NCBI GenBank assembly: GCA_024680795.1
Contig: JAILBR010000063.1
Span: 1-59,606, forward strand
From: Bacilli bacterium
GTDB lineage: Bacteria; Bacillota_I; Bacilli_A; RFN20; CAG-826
Direction: 5' to 3'
DNA length: 59,606 nucleotides
In this document: piece after piece, positions 43,866 through 58,342 of the stretch
Layout of the letters: each line of letters begins with the position of its first letter
Position numbering within the stretch: the first letter of the stretch is position 1
The notes under the pieces: model-generated
What the model was told of the DNA's origin: nothing
The model's database searches: none
Seen by the model: the letters and a program-made list of their open reading frames with translations, nothing else
Made by a program: the position numbers and the translations under genes

Positions 43866-46800
43866 CTATCTATTGTGGCTGATTAATGCACTGATGAAGT
43901 CCGCACGGGATAGAGGCTTATAGAAGTGATAACCTTGCATCATCATATTCTCATCGAAGTCACGTAAAATCGTGAATTGAGCGCTGTTTTCAACACCAAC
44001 GACTGAAACACCGATGCCGACTTCTTTCGCGTTAAAGACGATATCTTTAACTGCGTTAAATCTCGTGCCATCTGTATCGACCTTATAAATGAGGTCTCTA
44101 GCGATCTTGACTTCCTTAAATCCGAGTTCTTTAAGTTTTTCAACACCGATATATCGGCCGGTATATCTATCGACCGAGAACATGATGTGTGCACTACTAA
44201 GTTGTTGTGACATCTTTTGAATCTCATCGATATGGCTTGGAATAATCTCTTCTGGAATTTCAAATGATAGGAAGTTATTCGGGAATTTATAAGTATCATT
44301 AAGTTTGACGACACCTTGTAATAAGTTCAGGTCTTTTAAGTAGGTACTATCGACGTTAATTGCGATACGTTCAAGATTATTAATTTTGAATACACTATTT
44401 CCATATTCTTTATACATGTTACCGATGAAGTTGATAATCGCTTCGGTAATGAGGTTAGTCTTGCCTTCTTGCTCAGCGATACGAGAGATTTCTTCTGCGT
44501 TAAACATCGCGTTAGAATAGACGTTATTGATACGTAACAAGATTTCAGCTCCAAAGATCTTCTTATCTTTAGCCTTAACGATAGGTTGAAGATTAACACT
44601 AGAGAAGCTACCGGAGAATTCTTGTTCGATAACAGAAATGATGAATTCACGCTTAGAAGCACTTCTAGAAATCTTATGGTCATAGAAGTAAATGAAGTCT
44701 TTACCTCTTTCATGCTCGCCATGATGATAGAAGTCATTAACGTGCTTCATAAAGTCTTCGGCGTTCGCATAACCACTTGGCCATCTAAGTGGCAAATAAG
44801 TGAGCTTTAAAATGTCCTCGTTAGTGCCATCATCTAATAACTGTTTCTTTGAAAGTTCATAAATCTTTTCGCAAGTATTGATAACGTCAACGTGACCAAC
44901 ATTATGTAATAATAAGGCGATGCATTCGTTGTTATATGCATATAATTCGTCTGTGCCTAATTCATCTTTTAAGTTTCTTAAGAAACTTCTAATCGCGAAT
45001 AATGTGCCTTCACTACCTTGTTTTTCTAATAATGTTTCAATATTATCAATCGCTAATAAGAGGACATAGCCACGACCATTAACGTAATAGGAGTTACGGA
45101 TATTTTGATATAAGGCAAGATAAGAATTGATTAATAAGTCTTTATCGAATAAGTCACCGTTTAAATCACCTTGAGTTAGTCTTTCCACTAAAACAGAACG
45201 GATGCGACTCTTATGCTCATTTAAGGTTAAAGAGGCTTCATAATTGGCTTTACGATGGGTGAATTCTTTCTTTTTAAAAGTATGCATTGGACAGTCGCTA
45301 CAAGGCTTTTCTAATCCAAATAAGGCTTTATAACATAATTCCCCTTCTTTTAAGGATGGGAAGACAGTTTTTAAGTCTTTAGAGAAATACTTAAGTTCAT
45401 AGCTCTTATCATCGACTTTATATAAAGAGTAATCGGTTAAAGACATTAAATATTCGTTTTCATTACGATATTCTTCAATCGATTTATTCTTCTTAGTTAA
45501 TTCGAAATAATGTTTAACTCTTAAACAGATGATAAATAGTGATTCTCTAATATATGAATCGAGAATCAAATCTTTGTTATTTCTATTAAAGAAATAAATG
45601 ACTGCATCAATGTTATTTTCAATGCCGCGATAGACATAATAGAAGCCACTGCTGATACCATATAAATCTAAATCACGTCCAATATAGATGGAAGCATGTA
45701 ATCTCTTAGAGAAGAAATAAGAAGAATCAAAATCGGTAGCCTGGGCTAAAGAGCGAACAAAGTTACCATCCACCGCTTTTCCCTTAAATAGTTTAGAACT
45801 TTGGTTAGATAATAATTGAGTGTAAATACCAAGTTCATCATTATGAAAAATGATGCCGATATCATCGATATCGAGATAGTTGCCAAGATCGGTAAATAAA
45901 TCAGCGATCATCTTTTGGTCTTTAGCTTTTTGACCATAATCGTAAGTCAATTCATCGAGTTGATCTAATAAAGAAGACATGTAGTTAACATTCATCGCAT
46001 CAGAAAGCATTAAGCTCTTACCAGCGTTCTTCTTGATACGTTTTGGCATATAGAAGTTAACAACTTTGCCTTGTCTTTTCGCATATCTTAAGTCACTTAA
46101 TAATTCATCAACATCACTATAAGGGTAAGCGACAATCGCATATTTAGCGGAGATATATCTTAATCCTTCAAAGTCACGGATTGTTAAGCTGGAGTCACGG
46201 ATAACAGATATAATCTGTTCTTCCACTCTTGATAGAGAATCAATGACTGGTAAATAAATGAGTAAGGAGTTAATTTTCTCACGGTAAGCGAATAGCACTC
46301 CAGTATAATCACCAAATAAATCAGTGAAAACTTTGACTAAATATTTCTTATCGTTTTCATTTAAGGTTAATAAATCGACCGAGAAACTAACATCCACCAA
46401 AACATTACGGTAGCTTTGTGAAAGCATGATGATGTTTGGAAGTTCTTTTTCAAAAGATTCAAAAGTGACGATATTTAAATCTCGATCGACATATTGAAGT
46501 TTTAAATTGGAATAATCTGGCTTAGTAGTGATGATATAAGCACAATCGAATTTAGACTGTAAAACATCGATCTTATCGTTTAAATCATCGATTTCGTTAA
46601 CACCAGTTTTTGGATATTTATAAAATTTATAACTACCACTTAAGAAGCTATCATAGTTCTTTCTAGTGATAGTAAATAAAGAGTTATATTGGCTAAAATA
46701 TAGTCTTCTATATAAGTAGATGGAAACGATTACATAGGCAATCGCTAAAACTCCAGTAAAGACAAAGTATAAGATATAGAATACGCTTAATCCAGTCGAA

Positions 46801-46916
46801 ACATAACAAATCGCCATGATGATAGAAAGGATTAAATCGAAAGATAAAATCGAGACAGGAATAATAACAGTTTGTAACAAACTTTGTCTAATCGATACTT
46901 CTTTTTTATTCATCAT
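43866..46916 (-). CDS. Membrane-bound multidomain sensor: 2 TM, degenerate GGDEF-like, GAF-like, Cys-rich PAS-like, degenerate GGDEF, degenerate EAL
   Basis: LQPIV...GAEILLR, INVDS, FEIPE, VDRYTG (in place of DDFGTG), VVGVEN (in place of EGVE), MQGYHFYKP; CYKALFGLEKPCSDCP; the SD GGAGG supports the start at 46916. Confidence 0.8.
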   Translation of the reverse strand: MMNKKEVSIRQSLLQTVIIPVSILSFDLILSIIMAICYVSTGLSVFYILYFVFTGVLAIAYVIVSIYLYRRLYFSQYNSLFTITRKNYDSFLSGSYKFYKYPKTGVNEIDDLNDKIDVLQSKFDCAYIITTKPDYSNLKLQYVDRDLNIVTFESFEKELPNIIMLSQSYRNVLVDVSFSVDLLTLNENDKKYLVKVFTDLFGDYTGVLFAYREKINSLLIYLPVIDSLSRVEEQIISVIRDSSLTIRDFEGLRYISAKYAIVAYPYSDVDELLSDLRYAKRQGKVVNFYMPKRIKKNAGKSLMLSDAMNVNYMSSLLDQLDELTYDYGQKAKDQKMIADLFTDLGNYLDIDDIGIIFHNDELGIYTQLLSNQSSKLFKGKAVDGNFVRSLAQATDFDSSYFFSKRLHASIYIGRDLDLYGISSGFYYVYRGIENNIDAVIYFFNRNNKDLILDSYIRESLFIICLRVKHYFELTKKNKSIEEYRNENEYLMSLTDYSLYKVDDKSYELKYFSKDLKTVFPSLKEGELCYKALFGLEKPCSDCPMHTFKKKEFTHRKANYEASLTLNEHKSRIRSVLVERLTQGDLNGDLFDKDLLINSYLALYQNIRNSYYVNGRGYVLLLAIDNIETLLEKQGSEGTLFAIRSFLRNLKDELGTDELYAYNNECIALLLHNVGHVDVINTCEKIYELSKKQLLDDGTNEDILKLTYLPLRWPSGYANAEDFMKHVNDFYHHGEHERGKDFIYFYDHKISRSASKREFIISVIEQEFSGSFSSVNLQPIVKAKDKKIFGAEILLRINNVYSNAMFNAEEISRIAEQEGKTNLITEAIINFIGNMYKEYGNSVFKINNLERIAINVDSTYLKDLNLLQGVVKLNDTYKFPNNFLSFEIPEEIIPSHIDEIQKMSQQLSSAHIMFSVDRYTGRYIGVEKLKELGFKEVKIARDLIYKVDTDGTRFNAVKDIVFNAKEVGIGVSVVGVENSAQFTILRDFDENMMMQGYHFYKPLSRADFISALISHNR

Positions 46917-47652
46917 CGCTTCTACCTCCAAATAAGACGTCATTACGTCCGATATCGCCGATAGAGGAGACAACTGCCTTACCTAAAGATACATATTTGT
47001 CTAAGACAAATAAATATTTTTCGACATCCCAGCCTTTGCCTAATTCTTTTTCTACCACACGGATGGAAACGATTGGTACATCGTATAATTGTCCACTGAT
47101 CACCACTCCTCCAGTCGCGTTATCGACAGTCGCGGCTTTATCTAAATTGAGGAGTTCAAAATTATCTTTTATCTTTTCTAAGTTCGCGTTACTAAAATCA
47201 TTGCATGATAAGAAAGTGACAACTTTTGGGTTGATATAAGCACGTTTATTAAGTGCGTCACTTAAATAACCAATTAAGTCGTTTTGCACTTTATATTCAG
47301 GTCCAAAACCAGGAACTTGGCCTAAGACGACATTGTTATCGTTAATTTGATCAACATCAATATTAATCACTCGATTAGCGATCACAATATCTCCACTTTT
47401 TAATCCCTTGGTTAAAGAGACGCATCTTCCTACGACATAGGCTAAATCAATATGATAATGGTTAAAGATATAACTCGAAAGAGCAGAAGAAAGAATAGTT
47501 GTATAACAGCTATCAACGACAACAACTTCTTGGTTAAAGATAGTGCCGACGGAGATGACGTATTTTCTTAGTACCGTACTATCTTGACGGTTAGACATGA
47601 TGCTTTGAAAATATAAAACATCATCATGATTCGTACCAAAAATCGCAATCAC
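46906..47652 (-). CDS. MTA/SAH nucleosidase (PNP_UDP_1)-fold protein, probably catalytically inactive
   Basis: MIAIFG, LKSGDIVIA...IDVD...LGQVPG, DVPIVSIRVV match the MtnN layout; EME is DNA and SD is EK; GTG start overlaps the upstream TAG. Confidence 0.75.
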   Translation of the reverse strand: MIAIFGTNHDDVLYFQSIMSNRQDSTVLRKYVISVGTIFNQEVVVVDSCYTTILSSALSSYIFNHYHIDLAYVVGRCVSLTKGLKSGDIVIANRVINIDVDQINDNNVVLGQVPGFGPEYKVQNDLIGYLSDALNKRAYINPKVVTFLSCNDFSNANLEKIKDNFELLNLDKAATVDNATGGVVISGQLYDVPIVSIRVVEKELGKGWDVEKYLFVLDKYVSLGKAVVSSIGDIGRNDVLFGGRSDDE

Positions 47653-49199
47653 TATTGTCCCCTCTCTTTCTTTTCAAATTTGTTATTCTTTAAGAGTTCT
47701 TCAAATTCATTAAGTGGTAAAGGTTTGGAATAATAGAATCCTTGAATCGTATCGATATGCATTTTCTTTAAGATATCGACTTGTTCTTGACTATCAACAC
47801 CTTCGATGATGACTTCGATTTCATTTGTGTGACCTAATTCAGTTAAAAGTTTAACGATTGAACGAGTCTTCTCGTCTTCGACGAGTAAGTCAGAGAATGA
47901 TTTATCGATTTTAATCGCATCGAAAGGAATTTTTCTTAAGTTATCAATACCAGAATAACCAACACCAAAGTCATCCATCAAAACTCTAATACCGATATCT
48001 TTAAGTTTTTTAATGATGGAAATAGAGATAAATTGGTTAGCCTGACTGGTTGTTTCAGTAATTTCCACTTCCACGAGATGAGGTGGAACTTTATATTTAT
48101 CTAATAATTCTAAGACGTGATCAATAAAGCCAGTCGCGTAGAATTCATAAATAGAGAAGTTAACAGATACTGGGATAACTCTTCTACCTCTTTTAATCTC
48201 TTCTGATAAGTTCTTTAAAGCGAGTTCAAAAATATAGTTATCGATTAAAGAGATAAGACCAGCGGACTCAGCTTTGCCGATAAACATACCAGGAGTTAAT
48301 AAGCCATGTTTAGGAGAGTTCCATCTCGCTAAAGCTTCACAAGAGATGAACTTTCTCTCTATGAGAGAATATTTAGGTTGATAGTAGATGATAAATTCGT
48401 TGTTACGAAGGGCTTCTTCGATTTCATAGATATCATCTCTATTCGTTTCTTTTCTAAATGATTTATTGAAATATGTATAAGTTTCAAAGTTACTTTCAGC
48501 GACATTTCTAGCTAAGAAAGAGTCTTCAACCGCTCCCGTGATATTTTCGCCTTCAATGATTTCTTTAATGCCATAGAAAGGTTGAACATAAACTTTAAAG
48601 CTCTTCTCTTTCACGATTCGATAAACGTTACTAGAAATAGAATTGACGATTTCTGGAATTTTCTTCTCGTCATCACTAAATAGACAGAGCAAGAAAACTC
48701 CACGGTTAAAGCCATAGGCGTTATCCCTAGAAGAATAGGTACCTTTTCTTACGAAAAAGTCTTCTAAGAATAATGAAACGTTATAGTTAAGATTCATCAT
48801 CATATCACTATTAAAGCTATTAGAAGCAACCTTTAAACTGGTGCAGCTAAAGGCAATGATAAATTGTCTTCTCTTTTTAAGTCTTCTTTTTTTAGATAAA
48901 AATGAGACTCTAGTTTTAAATGCTTCAAGATTATAGAAAGTAGTTTTATGACCTAAGGTATAGCTATTTTCCATCTCTAATGTTTTAAAGAAACGACCTT
49001 GAGTGAAGAACTGTTTAAGAGACTCAGTTAAACCAATCGAAGAAGCAATAGCGAATATAATAATTAAAACTTGCCATAATTCATGACGTTCCGCCTTATT
49101 GTTAACAGAGATTAAAATAGCCGCAGTAAAAGATAACACTAAAGCGATAAAACAAATGGAAGCAAGAATTAAGTAGCGATATAAGGCTCTATTTTTCAT
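47652..49199 (-). CDS. Membrane-bound c-di-GMP phosphodiesterase (2 TM, degenerate GGDEF, intact EAL)
   Basis: YYQPK, EALARW, VSVNFS, EVEITET, MDDFGVGYS, KIDKSF, IEGVD, IQGFYYSKP. Confidence 0.92.
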   Translation of the reverse strand: MKNRALYRYLILASICFIALVLSFTAAILISVNNKAERHELWQVLIIIFAIASSIGLTESLKQFFTQGRFFKTLEMENSYTLGHKTTFYNLEAFKTRVSFLSKKRRLKKRRQFIIAFSCTSLKVASNSFNSDMMMNLNYNVSLFLEDFFVRKGTYSSRDNAYGFNRGVFLLCLFSDDEKKIPEIVNSISSNVYRIVKEKSFKVYVQPFYGIKEIIEGENITGAVEDSFLARNVAESNFETYTYFNKSFRKETNRDDIYEIEEALRNNEFIIYYQPKYSLIERKFISCEALARWNSPKHGLLTPGMFIGKAESAGLISLIDNYIFELALKNLSEEIKRGRRVIPVSVNFSIYEFYATGFIDHVLELLDKYKVPPHLVEVEITETTSQANQFISISIIKKLKDIGIRVLMDDFGVGYSGIDNLRKIPFDAIKIDKSFSDLLVEDEKTRSIVKLLTELGHTNEIEVIIEGVDSQEQVDILKKMHIDTIQGFYYSKPLPLNEFEELLKNNKFEKKERGQ

Positions 49200-50124
49200 T
49201 GTCTTTCTTCTCCTTTGATTTATTTAGCATCTCTTCTAATAACTCTTTCTTTAGACGTTCTCTATCTTTATTAGATATTTTATCTAATGATTTCACACTA
49301 CCCTTAGTTTCTGTCACTGGAGCTTCTTCTGCATCTTTTAAGGCTCTTAAGATATCAATAATCGAGGTAATAATTAGATAGGCAGCTGGGATAAGTAAGA
49401 AGATTAATAATCCAATTGGACTAGATAGAATCTTAAATACTTGTCCTAAAAATGGGGAATTAACTTTCACCACTCCTAAAAGTTGTTCGTAAGTAAGAAT
49501 TTGATATTGTTCTTTCTTACGATAGCTTTCTCCACCTTCTTCTCCTTCAGTGGTATTAATACCAGCAGTCACGAAATAATATTTTCCTTCGATTTGATGA
49601 ATTTCGAAAAGTCTATGGGTCATGACTTGGTTAGAGACAACTTCGCTCCAATTGTTTTGCCAATCAGGGTTATCACGTGGGCATACACTCGACCAACTTC
49701 TATTATTCATAAAGGTTAAGTCGATTTTCGCATTCGCTCCTCCATTACTATTGAAGCGATTAACGATATCTTCTTCTTTTTCTAGATAGGTGACGATTGC
49801 GGTGTTAACTGGATATTCAGGCTCCATAGAATCAGTTAAGACCACGAAACTACCGAATCCTAATCTAATTTGTTGGTTATAATGCTCTTTCGCATGCACC
49901 ATTCCATCGATTTGGCCAACTAAAACGATGACAAAGAAGACGCCAAAGATACCAGTTAAGATCCATTCGATAATCACTCTGGCCTTGCTCTTCTTCTTTT
50001 TCTTCTTTTTACCTGTTTCTTCAACATTTTCAGTAACCACTTCGGTTGGGGTTACTTCAGGATTAGGAAGAGATTCGTTATTATTTTGTTCTTCGGTTAT
50101 TTCAACTTTTTCTTCGTCGATCAT
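49189..50124 (-). CDS. sipW: SipW-type (S26B/Sec11-like) signal peptidase I
   Basis: TM, then FVVLTDSMEP (Ser), VMTHRL (His), GVVKVNSPFLG and a C-terminal TM (GLLIFLLIPA). Confidence 0.8.
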   Translation of the reverse strand: MIDEEKVEITEEQNNNESLPNPEVTPTEVVTENVEETGKKKKKKKSKARVIIEWILTGIFGVFFVIVLVGQIDGMVHAKEHYNQQIRLGFGSFVVLTDSMEPEYPVNTAIVTYLEKEEDIVNRFNSNGGANAKIDLTFMNNRSWSSVCPRDNPDWQNNWSEVVSNQVMTHRLFEIHQIEGKYYFVTAGINTTEGEEGGESYRKKEQYQILTYEQLLGVVKVNSPFLGQVFKILSSPIGLLIFLLIPAAYLIITSIIDILRALKDAEEAPVTETKGSVKSLDKISNKDRERLKKELLEEMLNKSKEKKDNEK

Positions 50125-52790
50125 AATTTAACAATCTTACCTCCTAACTCTTTTTTTATTTTCTTAGCGAGATTATAGTCGTCAAACACATGAGCGTCTT
50201 CTTTCATCTCACTAAAGTTATCTTTGGATACATAATATCCGCTTAAAGTCTTCACAATAAATCTGCCTGGAATTGGTTCTTCTTTGACCTTCTCCCTAGG
50301 TTTACGTTCTTTTTTAGTCGTCTCAGAGGCAGTTTTTTCCTCCTTCTCCATAGGAGAAGAATTCCCCTCTTTTTCTTCATTATCTTCTAAAACATCATCA
50401 TTAGAAGCGTTTACTTCTTCATTTATAGGTCCTTGTTCTTGAGATTGTTCATCATTAGATTCTTCTTGTTGAGGTTCATCATTTTTAACCCACATTTCGT
50501 TTTGTGGTTGTTCTTCCTCTGCCACTTCTTCTTGAGGATTATCTTCTTGAGTTGGAACTTCCTCTACTGGTTGTTCTTCCACTTTTTCTTCTTCAGGTTG
50601 AATTCCTTCCTCTACTGGTTGTTCTTCTTGAGGTTGAACGTCTTCGCCATTATTTTCTTCTATAACAGAATTTTCTTCTTGCGGTTTCTCTTGAGATGGT
50701 TCTTCATCAATATTTTCTTCTTGAGGTTGTTCTTCGGATAGAACTTCTTCTTCCACTGGTTGTTCTTGAATTTGTTCCTCACTTAAAACATCATTAGAAG
50801 CTTCTTCTTGTGCAGATTCCTCTTGTTGAGGTTGTCCATCGACTGGTTGCTCTTCTAGAGATGTTTCTTCTTCAGCTGATGTATCTTCTACTTGAGCATT
50901 TGATTCTTCATTCAAAGGCTCTTCTTGAACTTCAGAAGGTTGTTTTTCACCAATAGGAGATTCCTGAACTTCCTCTTGAGGCTCTTCTACTTCAGGAGCA
51001 GGTTGCTCTTCCTCTTGTTGAGGTTGTTCTTCCTTAGCTGGTTCTTCAGAAACGTTTTCTTCTTGAACTTGTTCATTTTCAGAAGGTTGTTCTTCTAAGA
51101 TAGACTCTTCTTGAGGTTCATTATTAACGCTTTCGATTTCTTTATTTTCTTCGACCTGTTCTTCTTTTTGAGGCTTGCTTAAAATAGGCTCATCTGGTTT
51201 ATTTTCTACTGGAGCTTCTTTCTTTTTACGGCCTCTCTTCTTTTCTTCTTTTGGAGCAACTTCTTCAGTTTTTTCAACTGGTTCATTTATAACTGGTTCA
51301 ACTGGAAGAGGTTGTTCTTCTGACTGATTTTGAGGTTGTTCTTGAGGAGCAGGCTCTTCAACAGGTTTTTGTTTTTCTTTTTGAACTTTATATTTTTGCT
51401 TTTTCGCTTCTTTATCTTTTTTGGCTTGCTCTTTAACGATTTGTTTTTCGCCTTTCGCAGCAGCGATAAGTTCTTGTCTCTTCTTTTCAATACGAGCAAG
51501 TTCTTCGTTAGCGATAGCCATCAAACGTTTTTCTTCTTCAGCGCGATCTTCTTCAGCAAACACTTTCAAAAGTTCTTGGACATATTTTTCCCAGTTGTCG
51601 TTTTCTCTGATCTTTCTTCTAAGAAGTTTTTCAATCTCTTGGAGTTCCTTCTTACGAGTGGCTTTTAATTTATATTCACCTTGATAATATAGTTTTTCAT
51701 ATTTATCAGGGTGTAAAGGCAAGCCTAAATGACCGAGATTATCTAAATATTTACGGTATTCTTCATCTACTCGGACAAATTCTAAAGTACCGGTTAAAGG
51801 TTCACCGAAAGTAAATATCTCATCATCAATACTGGTCATCACTTTTGGTTTATGAGTTTTAGAGACAGTTTTGATGTCTTTCATTTCTGTTTCTGTCTTT
51901 AAAGACAGATATTCAGTTAAGAATAGATAATTTAATTCCGCTAAATCTTCGTCTGTAAAGTTTTTATAAGCTTCATCTACTTTATAATTCACACCTAAAG
52001 AAGAGAATCTTTCGATAAATAATAAAGTTTTATAACAGTGATGATATTTAGGGTTCTTTCTGATGATGTTAGTTTGTAAGATTGGTTTACGAACATCTCT
52101 TTCGTTTTTGAGTTTCTTCATGAATGGAGAATTATAGTAATAGAAAATATATTCTCTCATCTTTAAGATACGGTCGATATAGCCTTGGCTTTTAATCGCA
52201 ATATCATCATCAGTTTCTTTTTTAACTCTGATTTTGGTTTCGATTTCTACTTCTTCTCCACCGACTTGAGTGTTGGTTTTTAAATACATCACTTCTTCCA
52301 TATGGAGAGGAATCATTCTTTGAATATATTCATATCTCTTTTCTACGAATAACACTAAACGTCTAATGAAAGTAGCGATAAATCTATTTTCATAAGTGTT
52401 CATATTATCTTCGTTAGAGTGAGATAAGATTTTAGAAGGGACAACATTATTTTGTTCGTCGACTTCTTTAATATATTGAGTGTGGCTTGCTAAATGTTGA
52501 ACGCTTTCCCCATCAATTTTTTTAGCAAGTTCAACAGGGACAACATTACTTTCTTGTTTAGTGACTTGTTTTGGGTTATTAACGATTTCACCAAGGTCAT
52601 ATAAACAATCTTCCACAACATCAATCCAAGATGAATCAAATAAGGAAGATTCATAACGATGGTAGCGTAAGAAAGAATTCTTTCCTTTTAAGAAAGAAAG
52701 GTAGATATCGTCAAAAGTTTTATCTTTATTCAAAGAAGAAACTTTATCGAGATATTTATAAAAAAGTTGTTTCTTAGTCGCTTTTGCCAT
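50121..52790 (-). CDS. DUF2357/McrC-N-like protein with coiled coil, long acidic disordered region and small C-terminal domain
   Basis: IVNNPK, VQHLASH, PSKIL..DNMNTYENRFIATFI, TNIIRKNPKY; lies directly downstream of the McrB-like gene. Confidence 0.65.
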   Translation of the reverse strand: MAKATKKQLFYKYLDKVSSLNKDKTFDDIYLSFLKGKNSFLRYHRYESSLFDSSWIDVVEDCLYDLGEIVNNPKQVTKQESNVVPVELAKKIDGESVQHLASHTQYIKEVDEQNNVVPSKILSHSNEDNMNTYENRFIATFIRRLVLFVEKRYEYIQRMIPLHMEEVMYLKTNTQVGGEEVEIETKIRVKKETDDDIAIKSQGYIDRILKMREYIFYYYNSPFMKKLKNERDVRKPILQTNIIRKNPKYHHCYKTLLFIERFSSLGVNYKVDEAYKNFTDEDLAELNYLFLTEYLSLKTETEMKDIKTVSKTHKPKVMTSIDDEIFTFGEPLTGTLEFVRVDEEYRKYLDNLGHLGLPLHPDKYEKLYYQGEYKLKATRKKELQEIEKLLRRKIRENDNWEKYVQELLKVFAEEDRAEEEKRLMAIANEELARIEKKRQELIAAAKGEKQIVKEQAKKDKEAKKQKYKVQKEKQKPVEEPAPQEQPQNQSEEQPLPVEPVINEPVEKTEEVAPKEEKKRGRKKKEAPVENKPDEPILSKPQKEEQVEENKEIESVNNEPQEESILEEQPSENEQVQEENVSEEPAKEEQPQQEEEQPAPEVEEPQEEVQESPIGEKQPSEVQEEPLNEESNAQVEDTSAEEETSLEEQPVDGQPQQEESAQEEASNDVLSEEQIQEQPVEEEVLSEEQPQEENIDEEPSQEKPQEENSVIEENNGEDVQPQEEQPVEEGIQPEEEKVEEQPVEEVPTQEDNPQEEVAEEEQPQNEMWVKNDEPQQEESNDEQSQEQGPINEEVNASNDDVLEDNEEKEGNSSPMEKEEKTASETTKKERKPREKVKEEPIPGRFIVKTLSGYYVSKDNFSEMKEDAHVFDDYNLAKKIKKELGGKIVKL
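50290..51370 (-). repeat. Low-complexity coding repeats (EEQPVEE/QPQEE)
   Basis: Recurrent (c)tactggttgttcttc and ttcttgaggttg units encoding Glu/Gln/Pro-rich repeats. Confidence 0.7.
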
Positions 52791-52804: not shown

Positions 52805-54328
52805 CTAGTTATTCTTTAATAAGTTTTCAATATAAGAATGAGCCATATGGAAATTGCCTTTGCCATATAACTTATCTAAATATGTATCAAGTTCTTTTAA
52901 TTGGTCTTTTAAGAAGGCGATATTTAAGGATTCAAATTTCTTTAAAATCTTGTTAGTGAAAATGAAATCAAATCCATCACTTTCAGTACCACCACAAGCG
53001 ATAAATGTTGGGATGAAGTCATCTAATTGTTTTAAAATACGGTTACCAAAGGCCAATCTGAATTTCTTAATAACAAAGTTATCAAGGTCTTCAAATTTCT
53101 TAAGCATATCCGCGGAGATGCCATATTGCTTTTTAGCTTCTGCAAATAAGGAAACTAGTTGAGCGTAAGGAACACTGATTGGTTCAGTTTCTACCGCGTC
53201 AAATGGTCTTCCTTTATCATCGAAGAACAATGAGATAGCACGGTCATAAACCTTATCAGCGATGGTAAATGTTGAGTCATCGTTATTCGCTGTTCCGAAG
53301 AAGTAGACGTTTTGAGGAATTAATAACTTACCTTCTTTGAGGTGTTTTGGATCACTTGGGTCAATAGAAGGAATTAAGTCAATTGTCCAGTCTTCAAAGT
53401 CTCTTTTTTCCATGACGGATAAGAATTCAGCGAAATAATATTCAATACGGGCTAAGTTCATTTCATCGAGGACGATGATATCTAAGTCTTTACGGTAGGT
53501 AGTGACATATAACGCTTTTAAGAATTCAGATTCGTTGAATTTCTTAGTGAATTCGTTATAGTAACCTAAAAGTTCACTTCTATCTTTCCATGATGGTTGG
53601 ACAGGAATGATTTCGCTATCAAATGAGAAGAATTTACCAAGGGCGTACGCTAAAGAAGTTTTACCAGTACCAGAGATACCTTCTAAGATGATGAGTTTTG
53701 AGGTTGCTAAGCCAGCGAATAATTGTCTAATAACATCAATACGGTAATATAGGCCTAATTTACTAGCAGCGTAGTTTCTAAAGCTATTACATAACTCTTC
53801 TAATGATAAACCCTCTTTAAACATGATCGCGGTATTCACGTCTTCATAAGCTTGGTCAACACGGGTAAGTTTTGGGAATCTAGAAGAGATTTGATCGATA
53901 ACTTCTTGATCTTCTTTTTGATAAGCACCTTCTTCAGGTTTTAAACCCATATAACCAGTCTTTAAGTTTAAGATTTTATCTTTTTCTTGAATGGCTTGAT
54001 ATAATTCGTAGTTAAGTCTTTCGACTTGATTTCTTAGTTCATCTTTATCGAGTTCTTTTCTGACAAATCTCACATATTTTCTTATTAATAAGAAAAGTCC
54101 GTATAAAATCGCACCAATTAAACCGATAAAGAAAAGTAAGAAGATAACCCAGAAGAACCATCCCCAGAAACCAAAAGTACCATTATAGGCGCCAAAAATG
54201 GAGTTGTAATTATCAAAATTGCCTGGCACTCTTTCCCAAGGTTTTACCCAAGCAGTATTAAGGAAAACACCGAGGTCTGTAAAGAAGGCCACAAGTAGTT
54301 CACGTAAGTAATTAAAGTATGCTTCCAT
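52805..54328 (-). CDS. McrB-like AAA+ GTPase/ATPase with N-terminal transmembrane anchor and coiled coil
   Basis: ILEGISGTGKT, IPVQPSWKD.SELLGYYN, LDEMNLARIEYYFAEFLS, FFGTANNDDST..IADKVYDRA; TM WGWFFWVIFLLFFIGLIGAILYGLFLLI. Confidence 0.88.
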   Translation of the reverse strand: MEAYFNYLRELLVAFFTDLGVFLNTAWVKPWERVPGNFDNYNSIFGAYNGTFGFWGWFFWVIFLLFFIGLIGAILYGLFLLIRKYVRFVRKELDKDELRNQVERLNYELYQAIQEKDKILNLKTGYMGLKPEEGAYQKEDQEVIDQISSRFPKLTRVDQAYEDVNTAIMFKEGLSLEELCNSFRNYAASKLGLYYRIDVIRQLFAGLATSKLIILEGISGTGKTSLAYALGKFFSFDSEIIPVQPSWKDRSELLGYYNEFTKKFNESEFLKALYVTTYRKDLDIIVLDEMNLARIEYYFAEFLSVMEKRDFEDWTIDLIPSIDPSDPKHLKEGKLLIPQNVYFFGTANNDDSTFTIADKVYDRAISLFFDDKGRPFDAVETEPISVPYAQLVSLFAEAKKQYGISADMLKKFEDLDNFVIKKFRLAFGNRILKQLDDFIPTFIACGGTESDGFDFIFTNKILKKFESLNIAFLKDQLKELDTYLDKLYGKGNFHMAHSYIENLLKNN

Positions 54329-54332
54329 AATT

Positions 54333-55448
54333 TTAAATCTCCATGTCTCTATAGATTCTAAAGCTTAATCCAGCTTTGAATCCTGCACCCATCACTTGAT
54401 TGACTGAATCTAAATCCCATCCTTCGATATATAAGGCGACACCGACTTTAGTTGGGGTATTAGCCTTAACTGGAAAAAAGAATTTGACATCGCTTTGTTT
54501 AAAGTCTTCTGGGATATAACGTTGTTCTTTAGCGATTTCCACTCCATTAGCAAGTGATTGTTCTAAGTTGAACCTCTTCACACCAGCTTCATGGCTAGCG
54601 TTGAAGACATTTGGTTCTCCTTCATATGTTGAATCTGCATCAAACGCTTCATCATATATGATTTTGCTACGGTCATTGACCTCACCATACACCACTTCGA
54701 ATTTTTCATCGTTTTTGTTGTAATGGTCATATTTATGATTGAAGGTGTTATCAAGAATTCCTCCTAATAGCACTTCTTCTTCATTATGATTTGGATCAAC
54801 GACTGCGTAATCGTAATTTCCTTCATCGTTTTCACAAAGTATAGAAAATCTCATCGCGTTAGGTAAGTTTGCTAATCTCTCTCTGATTTCTTCCTCTGTG
54901 TGAACGATAACATTTTCATTTTGCTCATGTCTTTTTATCTCGTCTTCACGCACTTCTTGCGCGTACGCGTTATTAAAAAGAGCATTTTGCTTGATGTATG
55001 TGGCGGATTCTTCTGTATCATCCGCTTTGATGGTCACATACACATTATCTTCACTAAAGAGATAGACTTCTTGATAAAAATATCCACCATGAGACTCGAC
55101 AAGTCGAGGGGTGCCATATTCGTCAAAAGGCACTAATGTGGTATAGGAGCTATCATAAAATATCGGTTCGTTATGGCCTTCGACATTTAACCAATTATTT
55201 TGGTACATAGTCGATACAGGAAAATAACGTTGTACTTCGTGTAATTCGTCGTATGATAACTCTTCTTTAAAAGAATCTAAATCTGTTGAGGTAGAAATGA
55301 GAAGTTCTCTATCACCATCAAGTCTAATATCAATAGCCTCGATAGCGAGCCTGTTACTTGCAGAATACCAAGCTAGAGAGACAGAAACTGCATTAAGCGC
55401 GATTAACCCTGTTAATAAACCAATAAGGATAATCTTGTTTGCTTTCAT
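54333..55448 (-). CDS. Secreted protein with SipW-class signal peptide (fibre subunit paralog 4)
   Basis: Signal ending VSLA|WY; FPVST, AMRFSI, VVYG, ALYIEGWD, terminal FKAGLSF. Confidence 0.7.
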   Translation of the reverse strand: MKANKIILIGLLTGLIALNAVSVSLAWYSASNRLAIEAIDIRLDGDRELLISTSTDLDSFKEELSYDELHEVQRYFPVSTMYQNNWLNVEGHNEPIFYDSSYTTLVPFDEYGTPRLVESHGGYFYQEVYLFSEDNVYVTIKADDTEESATYIKQNALFNNAYAQEVREDEIKRHEQNENVIVHTEEEIRERLANLPNAMRFSILCENDEGNYDYAVVDPNHNEEEVLLGGILDNTFNHKYDHYNKNDEKFEVVYGEVNDRSKIIYDEAFDADSTYEGEPNVFNASHEAGVKRFNLEQSLANGVEIAKEQRYIPEDFKQSDVKFFFPVKANTPTKVGVALYIEGWDLDSVNQVMGAGFKAGLSFRIYRDMEI

Positions 55449-55450
55449 TT

Positions 55451-56578
55451 CTAAACTTTGTTAATTTCAAATTGTAAACCGAGGTTGAAACTATATCCTG
55501 CCGCTTCATCGATCACGACATGATCCCAACCTTCTAAAAATATTGTTAATGTGGAATATCCAATCGCTATTTCACTATTGGCAGTGATTGTGACTGGCAT
55601 ACCACCAGAATAGCTATTACCATCATAATCTGGGAATACTGTTCTTTTTGTTTCGTATTCGGCTACTCCACGAATTACTGAATTCATATTGGCAGTGAAA
55701 ATATCTTTCAAGTGACGAGAACAGAACGTAGTTCTGCCGGTATCACCAGTGCCATTAACAGTACCATCATTTGGAGCGCTTGCTGGATCAACTGCATAGC
55801 CAGTATCACTATGTGTTAATGTGCCACTTGCAATTTCTCCATAAACATACTCTTTGCGAGTACTTGGATTGTAGTCATAAAATCCATCTCCGTTTAAGTC
55901 TAAAGGACCACAAACAGAAGTTTCGCCTGCAACTGCTTCATTTGAGCTAGGATTAAACAAATATCTCGTATCATTTGTTACATCATCAATAAATACACGT
56001 AGGGCTTTATCAATATCATGTCCTGAGGCTGCTGTTTCAGTTGAAGTAATCCATATCTCTTTTTGTTTAACAGGGCGTTCTTGATTATCTAGAACCCTAA
56101 ATGCAAATGGAAGTACTAAGTAGTTCTTAAGTGCAGCAGGATTCTTAACTCTATATTCTCCATCTTCTGTACTACATTCTGGGGCTTGATAAAGAGTTAA
56201 ATCATCATCACCACTTCTAGCTAAACTAGAAACAGGGGAAAGTTTATTAATAGCATAAGATGTGTTATCTAAATAGGCTCTAATCATGTCGCTGGTAAAA
56301 CCAGTAGCAGCACGATTCCAGACGATTTTATGGCCATCAACTGTTTGTTTGGTGAGATTAAATGTCGAGATTTCTTCATTAGTGAAGTATTCGTCATCAT
56401 CAACAAGACCAACTTCTAGTTGAACAGAACTACGAACTGCAGTTCCGGTAAAAGATAGTCTAACTGCTGAGTTATATGCGTACCAAGCAAGAGTCCCTGC
56501 GATGGAACCAACAAATCCAAGTAGCGTCAATGCAGTGGATCCAGCAACGAATAGATTAATCTTTTTAGATAGTCTCAT
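55451..56578 (-). CDS. Secreted protein with SipW-class signal peptide (paralog 3)
   Basis: GTLA|WYAYN; LSPVS, ALRVFI, GPLDLNGDG, IFLEGWD, FNLGLQF. Confidence 0.75.
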   Translation of the reverse strand: MRLSKKINLFVAGSTALTLLGFVGSIAGTLAWYAYNSAVRLSFTGTAVRSSVQLEVGLVDDDEYFTNEEISTFNLTKQTVDGHKIVWNRAATGFTSDMIRAYLDNTSYAINKLSPVSSLARSGDDDLTLYQAPECSTEDGEYRVKNPAALKNYLVLPFAFRVLDNQERPVKQKEIWITSTETAASGHDIDKALRVFIDDVTNDTRYLFNPSSNEAVAGETSVCGPLDLNGDGFYDYNPSTRKEYVYGEIASGTLTHSDTGYAVDPASAPNDGTVNGTGDTGRTTFCSRHLKDIFTANMNSVIRGVAEYETKRTVFPDYDGNSYSGGMPVTITANSEIAIGYSTLTIFLEGWDHVVIDEAAGYSFNLGLQFEINKV

Positions 56579-56650: not shown

Positions 56651-58264
56651 TTATTTGTTGAAGGCATCTTTGCCGACATCAAATGTCATACCGAAACGGA
56701 AACCAGCTCCGTCAGTATTTTCTCCACTCCAAGTTGGAACTTCGATATTTCCAAATGAAGTAAATTTGTAATATGTTTTTTCATTATGAGCGAGGTTATT
56801 TCCGCTTGCTTTGATGTAGTTGCCATTAGCATCTTGTGTGTAGAACTTGCTAACATCTTTGCTACCAGCTGGTAACCAATTACCAAGAGCGTCTTGTAAT
56901 TCGGTTGTAACCACTTCTGCATTTTCACCAGCAGACTTTTTGACATAATATGTCTTGCCCGCTAATGCTTTATGATTTGCATCCATATCATCTACTGTAA
57001 CTGCAAGATAGTTATCACCATCTTTTATAAACATAGCAGAAACATCTTTTGCAAATTGAATATTTGCAGTTTCGTTCTTGACGATTCTTGTAAAGTACTT
57101 AGTGCCATCAACAGCGAGTTTTTCGACTTCTAAGTTGACCTTTTCATGATTCAAACCATTTAACTTATAAGTATCAGCCGGAATAATTGCACCAACATCT
57201 AACTTTAATGGTCTGTAATGCAATGAGAAGTAAGATTTCTCAGGATCAGCTTTGCCGGTAGCGGCTTCATAGTCGCCATGTCCATCTTCAATAAAGTATC
57301 CTTCCACATTTTGTGGTTGAACATCATAAGAAGGAATGTAGACAATTTCGTTTGATTCGATGGTTTGACTATCTAAATCCATATCCCATCCTTCAAACCA
57401 AAGTGTCACTGTAACTTTTGAGAAACCAGTTTCTGATGTATGGAATAAGACTTTATCCATATTGGAAACATCCCATTCGTCATAGTTATCGTTAACTCTT
57501 GTAGCAACTAAATCGCTTGCTTTTTTAGCGGTTTGGTATTCACCTTCATTACCATAGACAACTTGCTTGTCACGGTTAGCGTTACCTTCGTAACCACCTT
57601 TGCGATCAGCTTTTTCATCTCCATCTAAGTCTAAAGCGCCAAATAACTCTAAGTTTTCGACACCGTTCTTAGAAAGTAAGAGATTTTTGTTAACAGCACC
57701 ATCGCCTTCATCATCGATTGCTAAGTGAACTCTTAAGCCATCGATGATTGAGCCTGCGCCTGCTTCTACATAATTTTCTAATAAGAAGTTAGATAAGAAT
57801 ACAGGAACTGACACTTGTTTCAAACCATTGCCAGTATTTTCAACATCCATTGCTCTGAATTCAACAGTGTATTGGATGTAATCATGCTCTTTATCAGCTT
57901 GTTCATAAACTTCATCATAACTACCAAGATTAGTAGCATATGCGTTTTCTGAAGCATCTGGGTTTTTATAAGCTTGATCTGGTAATTTATCATTTGCTTC
58001 AAGTTTACCAAAGGTAACAGGAGTAATAAGGGCTTTATTCTCACGTTCGCCGATTAAATCAGCGGTGATGAGATCTCTAGTCCATTCGCCTCCTTGTTTT
58101 CTTATTTGTAAGATTCCAGTTTCAGCAACACCAGTGCCAATCACGGTTGTACTGACTCTAGTATTGTATTGGAACCAAGCAAGAGTTCCACTTAACGCCG
58201 CAACGAAAGATAAAGCTGCAGCAGTTGATAACGAAGAAACAACAAGTTTTTTGCTAATTTTCAT
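56651..58264 (-). CDS. Secreted protein with SipW-class signal peptide and repeat insert (paralog 2)
   Basis: SD AAAGGAG before MKISKK at 58264; GTLA|WFQYNT; DYIQYTV, GLRVHL, GALDLDGD, LWFEGWD, FRFGMTF. Confidence 0.78.
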   Translation of the reverse strand: MKISKKLVVSSLSTAAALSFVAALSGTLAWFQYNTRVSTTVIGTGVAETGILQIRKQGGEWTRDLITADLIGERENKALITPVTFGKLEANDKLPDQAYKNPDASENAYATNLGSYDEVYEQADKEHDYIQYTVEFRAMDVENTGNGLKQVSVPVFLSNFLLENYVEAGAGSIIDGLRVHLAIDDEGDGAVNKNLLLSKNGVENLELFGALDLDGDEKADRKGGYEGNANRDKQVVYGNEGEYQTAKKASDLVATRVNDNYDEWDVSNMDKVLFHTSETGFSKVTVTLWFEGWDMDLDSQTIESNEIVYIPSYDVQPQNVEGYFIEDGHGDYEAATGKADPEKSYFSLHYRPLKLDVGAIIPADTYKLNGLNHEKVNLEVEKLAVDGTKYFTRIVKNETANIQFAKDVSAMFIKDGDNYLAVTVDDMDANHKALAGKTYYVKKSAGENAEVVTTELQDALGNWLPAGSKDVSKFYTQDANGNYIKASGNNLAHNEKTYYKFTSFGNIEVPTWSGENTDGAGFRFGMTFDVGKDAFNK

Positions 58265-58342
58265 AACTTGTCTCCTTTCGGTTATGTATGTAGTATGTGC
58301 GCTATATAAATATAGCAATTAAATATTAATTATTAATGATGA

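Follow-up and report, generated by a model that had tools for sequence, protein, structure and literature searches.

A membrane-anchored McrB-family NTPase encoded in a conserved operon with a SipW-type signal peptidase and exported paralogues in Bacilli

Introduction

In the solved McrBC complexes of Escherichia coli (6hz4, 6ut6) the GTPase McrB, a protein of AAA+ fold bearing Walker A and B motifs and an N..D signature, forms a ring that is plugged by the N-terminal domain of its partner McrC. The gene considered here lies in a contig of 59,606 nucleotides (JAILBR010000063.1 of assembly GCA_024680795.1, hereafter the window) from a Bacilli bacterium of the CAG-826 lineage, and encodes a nucleoside triphosphatase (NTPase) that shares this fold and these motifs and is followed by a partner with an McrC-like N-domain. 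It differs from the E. coli system in having no N-terminal DNA-binding domain, in a partner without the PD-(D/E)xK nuclease, in being anchored in the membrane, and in its low sequence similarity (E ~1e-5). The protein is no DNA restriction enzyme but very probably the NTPase subunit of a McrBC derivative of the CoCoPALM type, which probably serves fibre assembly and not defence. The GTPase-partner pair lies in a conserved operon with one or more signal peptidases of the SipW/endoplasmic reticulum (ER) type, exported paralogues with an A-W-[YF] signal, and EAL or GGDEF-EAL proteins.

This architecture is surprising for an McrB, yet it has already been named in print. The CoCoPALM clade was introduced by Bell et al. 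(eLife 2024, PMC11090510) in one paragraph and two table rows, which link it to pilus assembly and defer its treatment to a later paper; its representative in their GTPase tree is RHC33375.1. The same lines describe the neighbouring peptidase as SipA-like (4N31, HHpred E 8.1e-8) and the N-terminus of the GTPase as FtsB-like (HHpred E 1.2). All four features of that description recur in our locus, namely an NxD-type GTPase, its fusion to a transmembrane and coiled-coil N-terminus, a coiled coil on the McrC homologue and a neighbour of the signal-peptidase family, so that by published description the protein is very probably a member of this clade. Two points depart from the description as published: the peptidases look catalytically intact and of the ER/SipW type (SipA itself is an inactive pilus-assembly chaperone), and the zipper is placed on the cytoplasmic side. 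To the published picture the present analysis adds likely substrates in the form of the A-W-[YF] signal proteins, a membrane protein of about 250 residues, and the EAL/GGDEF proteins. Among relevant hits, a full-text literature search for 'CoCoPALM' returned the paper of Bell et al. and its preprints only, with no published analysis of the clade.

Two further groups invite comparison. With the CoCoNuT systems (CnuB/CnuC) and the PADLOC candidate PDC-M26, on which a literature search found no paper, the locus shares an NxD-type GTPase domain, coiled coils on both subunits, and McrC homologues that often have no active nuclease. In contrast to CoCoNuT, it has neither a HEPN nor any other nuclease partner and is without RNA-binding domains and a long cytoplasmic coiled coil; in their place are a membrane anchor and secretion-related neighbours. 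With the tapA-sipW-tasA operon of Bacillus subtilis and the sipW-bsaA-bsaB-bsaC operon of Clostridium perfringens it has in common a SipW-type peptidase encoded beside exported proteins, in those operons the fibre subunits. In C. perfringens a TasA-like protein is processed by SipW and assembles into polymers at the membrane through donor-strand exchange, and the efficiency of its secretion depends on a separate NTPase-driven machinery, the type IV pilus genes (PMC11580942). Those fibre operons are without a McrBC-like pair, and the secreted proteins of our locus show no significant sequence match to TasA or camelysin and a weak fold match. Literature searches on TasA in Acholeplasma gave nothing relevant by title or abstract, and none of the papers found on SipW and McrB links the two.

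The NTPase core

A single open reading frame (ORF) of 507 codons fills positions 52,805 to 54,328 on the minus strand, the plus-strand translation being riddled with stops. At least 8000 proteins match it at an expectation value (E) of 0.001 or below, the top 120 with 72-100% identity across 97-100% of its length; two of these 120 carry source names, those of 'Bacilli bacterium' and 'Erysipelotrichaceae bacterium' metagenome-assembled genomes (MAGs). Homologues this numerous and nearly full-length identify a real gene and no chance ORF.

Pfam AAA_5 is matched above its family cut-off (E 5.3e-6, 26.9 bits against 22). The match to the NCBIfam McrB equivalog NF008457 is weak (E 1.5e-5), reaching 23.9 bits where the equivalog level begins at 637, and by HMMER residues ~193-369 align with the E. 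coli McrB chains 6hz4, 6ut6 and 7vsr (E 7e-6 to 9.5e-6) with no gap across Walker A, Walker B and the signature. The PADLOC model PDC-M26A matches the NTPase domain alone (E 4.2e-41), in the window protein as in three relatives. An original prediction, made from the letters of the window, had reported the three motifs as intact; each was located and is invariant in homologues (Table 1), and the core of the signature can now be refined to N348-x-D350-D351. These three residues are invariant in an alignment of 74 sequences, position 349 being N, K, R, Q or V, and the N-x-D-D motif is present in 76 of 80 homologues from the locus scan described below. In the NxD branch of McrB GTPases the motif is 'usually followed by a glutamate or a second aspartate' (Bell et al., PMC11090510), a form that the N-x-D-D signature fits. 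The ungapped alignment to the NTAD of E. coli McrB can also be read as NxxD, sequence alone being compatible with both forms.

The N-terminal module

Ahead of this core the protein has one strong hydrophobic segment, with a 19-residue Kyte-Doolittle mean of up to 2.75 centred on residues 59-77. It sits inside an uncharged span (residues 40-82) that gives way to the basic stretch RKYVRFVRK and then to a heptad-periodic stretch. The arrangement is general: a hydrophobic segment precedes Walker A in 79 of the 80 homologues taken from species-representative genomes (the one without it is a truncated ORF), and at least four Lys/Arg residues fall within the 15 positions after the uncharged span in 73 of 74 aligned homologues. 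In the same 74 sequences the heptad positions 98/105/112/119 are L/L/L/I in 99/100/66/89%, L105 being invariant and L98, E115 and K116 nearly so, and an SRFPKL..D element (residues 149-158) is conserved just before the AAA+ core. By the positive-inside rule, and because an NTPase needs cytoplasmic nucleotide, the helix should run N-out/C-in and leave about 50 residues outside; the zipper, contiguous with the NTPase and following the basic patch, should be cytoplasmic.

Hydropathy, basic patch and conserved heptads thus agree with the transmembrane helix and coiled coil of the original prediction, which had also proposed that the methyl-DNA reader usually fused to McrB is missing and had named a nucleic-acid-binding domain in the N-terminus as the finding that would speak to the contrary. 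Pfam found none in residues 1-153; with the threshold relaxed to E 10, chance membrane-like rows alone appeared. When residues 1-200 were compared with 1.84 billion representative proteins, 215 matched at E <= 0.001 and 87 at 1e-10. Most of these are fragments, and as the full-length matches measure ~490-630 residues, the N-terminal module appears solely on this kind of protein.

The McrC-like partner

The next gene downstream, 14 bases away, encodes the partner, and the DUF2357 companion named in the original prediction is borne out: the whole protein has no Pfam match, but residues 1-460 searched alone hit DUF2357, the N-terminal domain of McrC, at E 7.7e-8 (32.3 bits against a cut-off of 23.3). 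An AlphaFold2 model from 71 sequences (pLDDT 82.8) points the same way, the four best matches of a VIA structure scan being McrC chains (6ut5_G at Z 8.6, then 6ut6_G, 6ut7_G and 6hz4_M at Z 8.1-8.2). These align 135-144 residues, model positions 47-267 against E. coli McrC 3-191, and cover the N-domain only. The tool's guide rates a Z near 8 as middling, and it is the agreement with the Pfam match that lends it weight; Foldseek against the PDB gave nothing at E <= 0.001 for the model, with McrC chains at ranks 2 and 14.

Beyond the McrC-like core the partner is of a different nature. Past residue 300 a disordered stretch of the model gives way to a single long helix (370-459), the candidate coiled coil. 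Glu makes up 31%, Gln 14% and Pro 11% of residues 461-815, the corresponding tails at other loci being K/E/R-rich repeats. Conservation across the 71 partners stops near residue 275, and some partners are merely 334-378 residues long. A PD-(D/E)xK nuclease was found neither by Pfam (whole protein, N-terminal part, last 75 residues) nor in the model nor in the conservation pattern, residues 461-814 having been judged by composition only, and with none found by any of these routes the pair has neither the DNA-reading nor the DNA-cutting part of classical McrBC. NCBIfam and PADLOC gave no family for the whole partner, and PADLOC no model even at E up to 0.1; nor did the other partners compared match a PADLOC model.

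The last 75 residues of the partner (50,124-50,348) form a small module after the acidic tail, IPGRFIVKT..GYY.S...F......VFDD.N.A......GGK.IKL, which recurs in four related loci only (L012, L022, L024 and L025) and has no Pfam match.

Conservation of the neighbourhood

The operon runs on the minus strand throughout, its genes overlapping or 2-72 bases apart, in the order secreted proteins of 385, 555, 375 and 371 residues, GTPase, partner, signal peptidase, EAL protein, PNP_UDP_1 protein and a second EAL protein of 1035 residues. The whole block is syntenic in four related genomes. When species-representative genomes were scanned by pattern, at least 600 relatives of the GTPase came to light, of which 80 loci were retained. 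Among the labels these bear are Erysipelotrichaceae and Bacilli MAGs, Acholeplasma granularum ATCC 19168, Anaeroplasma, Izemoplasmatales, Paracholeplasma, Oscillospiraceae, Christensenellaceae and Ruminococcus sp. CAG:488. In 71 of the 80 loci the partner sits no more than 300 bases downstream of the GTPase; of the 68 loci that have 1.5 kb or more of downstream sequence, 64 show this arrangement. Where at least 4 kb was available on both sides (33 loci), 32 loci have a SipW-like peptidase gene, which adjoins the pair in 27; secreted paralogues were found in 29, a membrane-anchored protein of ~250 residues upstream of the secreted genes ('X') likewise in 29, and an EAL protein in 24; partner, SipW and secreted genes occur together in 27 of the 33.

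Co-occurrence across whole genomes gives a similar picture. Among 41 related genomes, 12 carry a full-length GTPase (at least 64% identity), and the same 12 carry SipW (E <= 1.8e-45) and secreted (E <= 2.9e-60) orthologues; none of the other 29, several of them 94-98% complete, reaches the GTPase, SipW or secreted levels. The link to the adjacent secreted genes, also part of the original prediction, is therefore conserved by synteny, by the long-flank loci and by co-occurrence (12 against 29 genomes). Across loci the GTPase is the best conserved component (63-76% identity), ahead of the partner (41-57%), SipW (34-48%) and the secreted proteins (24-43%).

The operon is also held by bins labelled Bacteroides, Hallerella, Bacteroidales and Treponema (L025, L030, L041, L050, L060 and L085), labels that probably reflect binning or labelling errors and no gene transfer. 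At the A. granularum locus (L054) two GGDEF-EAL proteins occur, together with a protein of 767 residues with an A-W-F signal (L054:14456-16759) ending in four CBM_5_12 chitin/carbohydrate-binding repeats, plausibly a fibre-borne adhesin.

The penicillin-binding protein (PBP) transpeptidase domain PF00905 was found in none of the 25 genomes of the window's own family (G000-G024), many at least 90% complete, the window's genome (G000) itself being 74% complete. In sister families it occurs in nine of 16 genomes, and one of those nine (G026) carries the same operon. The lineage of the window may be wall-less.

The signal peptidase

The peptidase of the window matches NCBIfam SipW partially (E 7.8e-9, 35.4 bits against an equivalog cut-off of 190) and contains a large insertion. 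A search of the PDB with this single sequence gave chance rows only, and a family profile was needed to reveal the affiliation: a 28-member profile matches human SEC11C (E 5.9e-18) and SEC11A (E 1.1e-17), and bacterial LepB-type enzymes far more weakly (E ~0.004-0.03). The structure behind the SipA-like label, 4N31, does not occur among the 60 best PDB rows listed for this profile. Residues S99, M100 and H170 (SMEP ... THR) are invariant in 28 of 28 members, and judged by such residues the peptidases look like working enzymes of the ER/SipW type. A cytoplasmic C-tail is also conserved throughout the family and reads LS.ED+ERLK+ELL.EM in the window's clade. A complex prediction of the SipW family with GTPase residues 1-145 scored 0.00 against a mark of 0.32, with controls not run, and gives no verdict either way.

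In most of the distant loci (L037-L098) two SipW-type genes bracket the GTPase-partner pair, as at L054:9076-9759 and L054:13135-13725. An 'up'-type peptidase (SDSM.G...) lies 13-60 bases upstream of the GTPase and a 'down'-type (SMEP) after the partner, the window's clade having the 'down' type only. Among 51 'up'-type peptidases the Ser, His and GD aspartate are kept in 94, 94 and 86%, respectively.

The secreted paralogues

All four secreted proteins begin with a basic stretch and a hydrophobic helix followed by an [ST]-[LV]-A-W-[YF] motif, in which W27 is invariant and A26 nearly so among 36 family members. This signal resembles the SipW-dependent signal of TasA and CalY, a likeness that no database match confirmed, and none of the four proteins has a family match in Pfam, NCBIfam or PADLOC. 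A model of the 371-residue paralogue, sec371, from the 36 sequences is mostly beta (pLDDT 85.5, pTM 0.83). In a protein atlas the nearest named cluster to the secreted protein is Peptidase_M73 (0.85), a lead by the atlas's own rules.

Several observations concern the extent of the family. The ORF of sec555 starts at TTG, and profile and paralogues favour the ATG 18 codons downstream (58,264-58,318). Another contig of the window's genome (C17, 2257 bases) encodes a membrane-anchored 'X' protein of 307 residues (L101:46-969) followed by a fifth secreted paralogue of 398 residues (L101:974-2170), neither with a Pfam match. It is probably the missing upstream end of the operon, since the window, which is the whole of its contig (C8), stops 106 bases past the start of sec385 and X lies upstream of the secreted genes elsewhere. 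A third contig (C45, L102:1391-12506) holds, far from any GTPase, two tandem modules, each of a protein of ~310 residues with an A-F-A-W-F signal followed by one of ~1500 residues with an A-[ST]-W-F-M signal; the four proteins have no Pfam match and may be further substrates of the single SipW.

Other genes of the window and hints of expression

The 32 other ORFs examined in the window are of a housekeeping kind, among them LepA, AlaRS, PNPase, FtsK, RNase J, GreA and ComEC/ComEA. They include no DNA methyltransferase, integrase or transposase, the only methyltransferase-like entries being rRNA RsmB/F and a tRNA MnmA-type enzyme, in line with the original statement that no methyltransferase is nearby. 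The features of the operon are collected in Table 1.

Table 1. Features of the GTPase gene and its operon in the window
Feature	Coordinates	Strand	Basis
McrB-family (AAA_5) NTPase with N-terminal membrane anchor, 507 residues; very probable CoCoPALM-type GTPase subunit	52805..54328	minus	ORF; AAA_5, McrB and PDC-M26A domain matches; alignment to E. coli McrB structures
N-tail of ~50 residues ahead of the transmembrane helix, predicted extracellular	54179-54328	minus	Topology inference
Trp/Phe-rich hydrophobic transmembrane segment, residues 51-82	54083..54178	minus	Hydropathy and conservation
Basic stretch and short leucine-zipper-like coiled coil, residues 84-123, cytoplasmic side	53960..54079	minus	Heptad conservation
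Walker A GISGTGKT, residues 217-224	53657..53680	minus	Motif search; invariant in 74-homologue alignment
Walker B LDEMN, residues 287-291	53456..53470	minus	Motif search; L287, D288, E289, N291 invariant (74 homologues)
McrB signature GTANNDDST, residues 345-353	53270..53296	minus	Motif search; N348-x-D350-D351 invariant
McrC-like partner, 889 residues: DUF2357 core (~47-275), long single helix (370-459), 31%-Glu tail (461-815), small C-terminal module	50121..52790	minus	Pfam, model, conservation
ER/SipW-type signal peptidase I, 311 residues, two transmembrane segments, conserved cytoplasmic C-tail	49189..50124	minus	NCBIfam, family profile, conserved residues, hydropathy
Membrane EAL protein (c-di-GMP phosphodiesterase family), 515 residues, 11-base overlap with the SipW gene	47652..49199	minus	Pfam EAL E 4.9e-63; syntenic in relatives
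PNP_UDP_1 (nucleoside phosphorylase/nucleosidase superfamily) protein, 248 residues, between the two EAL genes, kept in the window's clade	46906..47652	minus	Pfam; synteny
Membrane protein with C-terminal EAL domain, 1035 residues, last gene of the conserved block	43866..46973	minus	Pfam EAL E 1.3e-31; synteny
sec371, secreted paralogue, 371 residues, N-terminal signal-anchor ending S-L-A-W-Y, beta-sandwich	54333..55448	minus	ORF and model
sec375, secreted paralogue, 375 residues, signal ...GTLAWYAY	55451..56578	minus	Family hidden Markov model (HMM) match
sec555, secreted paralogue, ORF of 555 residues; start probably ATG at 58264 (MKISKK...), giving 537 residues	56651..58318	minus	Profile match begins at 58264
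sec385, secreted paralogue, 385 residues, signal ...GTVAWYQY, last gene before the contig end	58343..59500	minus	ORF and family HMM

Two RNA libraries from one bovine-gut study contain contigs that are 90-99% like parts of SipW, partner, GTPase, sec371, sec375 and sec555, and one of them (X15 record 13; 54,107-54,659, 18 differences) bridges the GTPase/sec371 junction. Depth of any kind was found in 22 and 17 of 30 bins, leaving parts of the operon uncovered, and all four runs compared with the window consist of contigs. Such contigs are a weak hint of operon transcription and no proof of it: the depth collects relatives, and level, strand and ends are not shown.

Proposed role and alternatives

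The observation of a McrB-like NTPase with a membrane anchor in place of a DNA-recognition domain is confirmed, and the interpretation placed on it originally is partly supported, the 'ring motor acting on a protein substrate' being a reasonable inference from the context and the missing nuclease. A role of some sort in fibre biogenesis is fairly likely. By analogy with McrB, the NTPase would assemble into a ring at the cytoplasmic side of the membrane, tethered through its N-terminal helices with the ~50-residue tails outside, and the McrC-like core would plug and activate it as in solved McrBC. Within the membrane, helices and outer tails could meet the signal-anchored subunits and the peptidase or peptidases, GTP hydrolysis might power or gate both the SipW-dependent release of TasA-like subunits and their polymerisation, and the c-di-GMP enzymes would set the timing. 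As a tentative and possible reading, then, a membrane-bolted GTPase ring of McrBC descent, without reader or nuclease, may be the cytoplasmic engine of an uncharacterised surface-fibre machinery in which Sec-exported TasA-like subunits, tethered as yet by their signal anchors, are passed to dedicated ER-type peptidases and polymerised under c-di-GMP control. This machinery would be widespread in gut and rumen Bacillota, including lineages in which no PBP was detected and where the fibre would be rooted in the membrane.

A number of results weigh against this reading, the first group bearing on the nature of the secreted proteins. Only one of the 36 family members matches TIGR04088 (E 0.023) and one Peptidase_M73 (E 0.084), and the family profile finds no TasA chain in the PDB. 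For the sec371 model, Foldseek against the PDB gave nothing at E <= 0.001, and in a VIA scan of 48,161 chains the TasA fibre 8aur_A came first at a score below the tool's noise guide (Z 5.9, rmsd 3.9 over 141 residues). It is followed by the 0406 thread of S. acidocaldarius (7pnb, Z 5.5) and then by chaperone-usher pilins and archaeal cannulae, the bundling pilus of P. calidifontis standing at rank 21; that donor-strand fibre subunits head the list is suggestive only. The paralogues are accordingly treated here as probable TasA-like fibre subunits.

The second group of contrary results concerns the coupling of the genes. Two loci (L082 and L092) have no detectable partner beside the GTPase, and the SipW, secreted and X profiles were trained on the same loci they score; a rough background comes from the genome of the window, where, out of 2567 ORFs of 60 residues or more, the secreted profile matches five and the SipW profile one at full length. 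The co-occurrence does not amount to a statistical test, the genomes being related and hence not independent. One genome, 97% complete (G018), has two transmembrane-anchored relatives with a partner and no SipW or secreted match; another, 94% complete (G017), is without the GTPase and has, together on a single contig, a SipW-like gene and weak secreted matches; and two more (G012 and G022) have longer GTPase relatives of 693-704 residues. Coupling of the GTPase with SipW and secreted genes is thus not obligate across the wider family, and the distribution within the genus, 11 of 23 genomes, has the patchiness of an accessory or defence gene. Finally, ring, GTP use, protein substrate and fibres are drawn from context and analogy. 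The locus of G018 (L018, on G018:C1) is a variant with a different context, its zipper-less relatives of 419 and 468 residues flanking one partner gene.

In a different account, in our view unlikely, the GTPase-partner pair is no motor but a nucleotide switch that senses c-di-GMP, envelope state or the load of uncleaved subunits and, through its coiled coils, toggles SipW activity or operon expression. The GTPase activity of McrB is slow and stimulated by McrC, and SipW of B. subtilis has a signalling role apart from cleavage. To this may be added the coiled coils on both GTPase and partner, the conserved cytoplasmic C-tail of the SipW proteins, and the EAL or GGDEF-EAL genes of the A. granularum locus and of 24 of the 33 long-flank loci. 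Against these stand the lack of a DNA-binding output domain in the operon by Pfam and of any c-di-GMP-binding motif, none having been sought; the very high conservation of the AAA+ core fits a working enzyme, but fails to part switch from motor.

Descent from McrBC, the PDC-M26A match and the patchy presence within the genus would also be expected of an anti-phage or conflict system that guards the surface or the fibre, for instance against fibre-binding phages, with the peptidase or another neighbour as effector, and the related CoCoNuT systems are predicted to act in defence (PMC11090510). We regard this as improbable. The PADLOC match is limited to the NTPase domain, with no model matching the partner, no nuclease or other known effector domain is present, and the operon stands among housekeeping genes with no mobile elements in the window. 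Its order is kept from Bacilli to Clostridia and the GTPase retains the between-species identity given above, whereas defence genes usually diverge fast. Least probable is a membrane quality-control or division-related AAA+ protein that extracts stalled signal-anchored precursors or organises a membrane site: AAA+ rings at membranes often extract proteins, and the FtsB-like label could signify real divisome kinship, but the FtsB match at E 1.2 is non-significant, the topology is opposite (the FtsB zipper is periplasmic and the present one cytoplasmic), the N-terminal module is found only on this family or its fragments, and the absence of the family from 29 of 41 related genomes makes it non-essential.

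Significance

The clade has been named but is unstudied, and what is new here are the apparently active SipW-type peptidases in place of SipA-like chaperones, the cytoplasmic zipper, the nuclease-less partner, the candidate substrates, the link to c-di-GMP enzymes and the co-occurrence pattern. The family is common, given the number of species-representative genomes that hold a relative, and because its carriers are rumen and gut Bacilli and Clostridia together with culturable Acholeplasma, the proposals made here are testable at the bench. McrBC is the textbook restriction enzyme, and a branch that has exchanged DNA reading and cutting for a membrane anchor, and is found in the company of signal peptidases and fibre-like proteins, would clearly exemplify the co-option of a defence motor for the construction of the cell surface.

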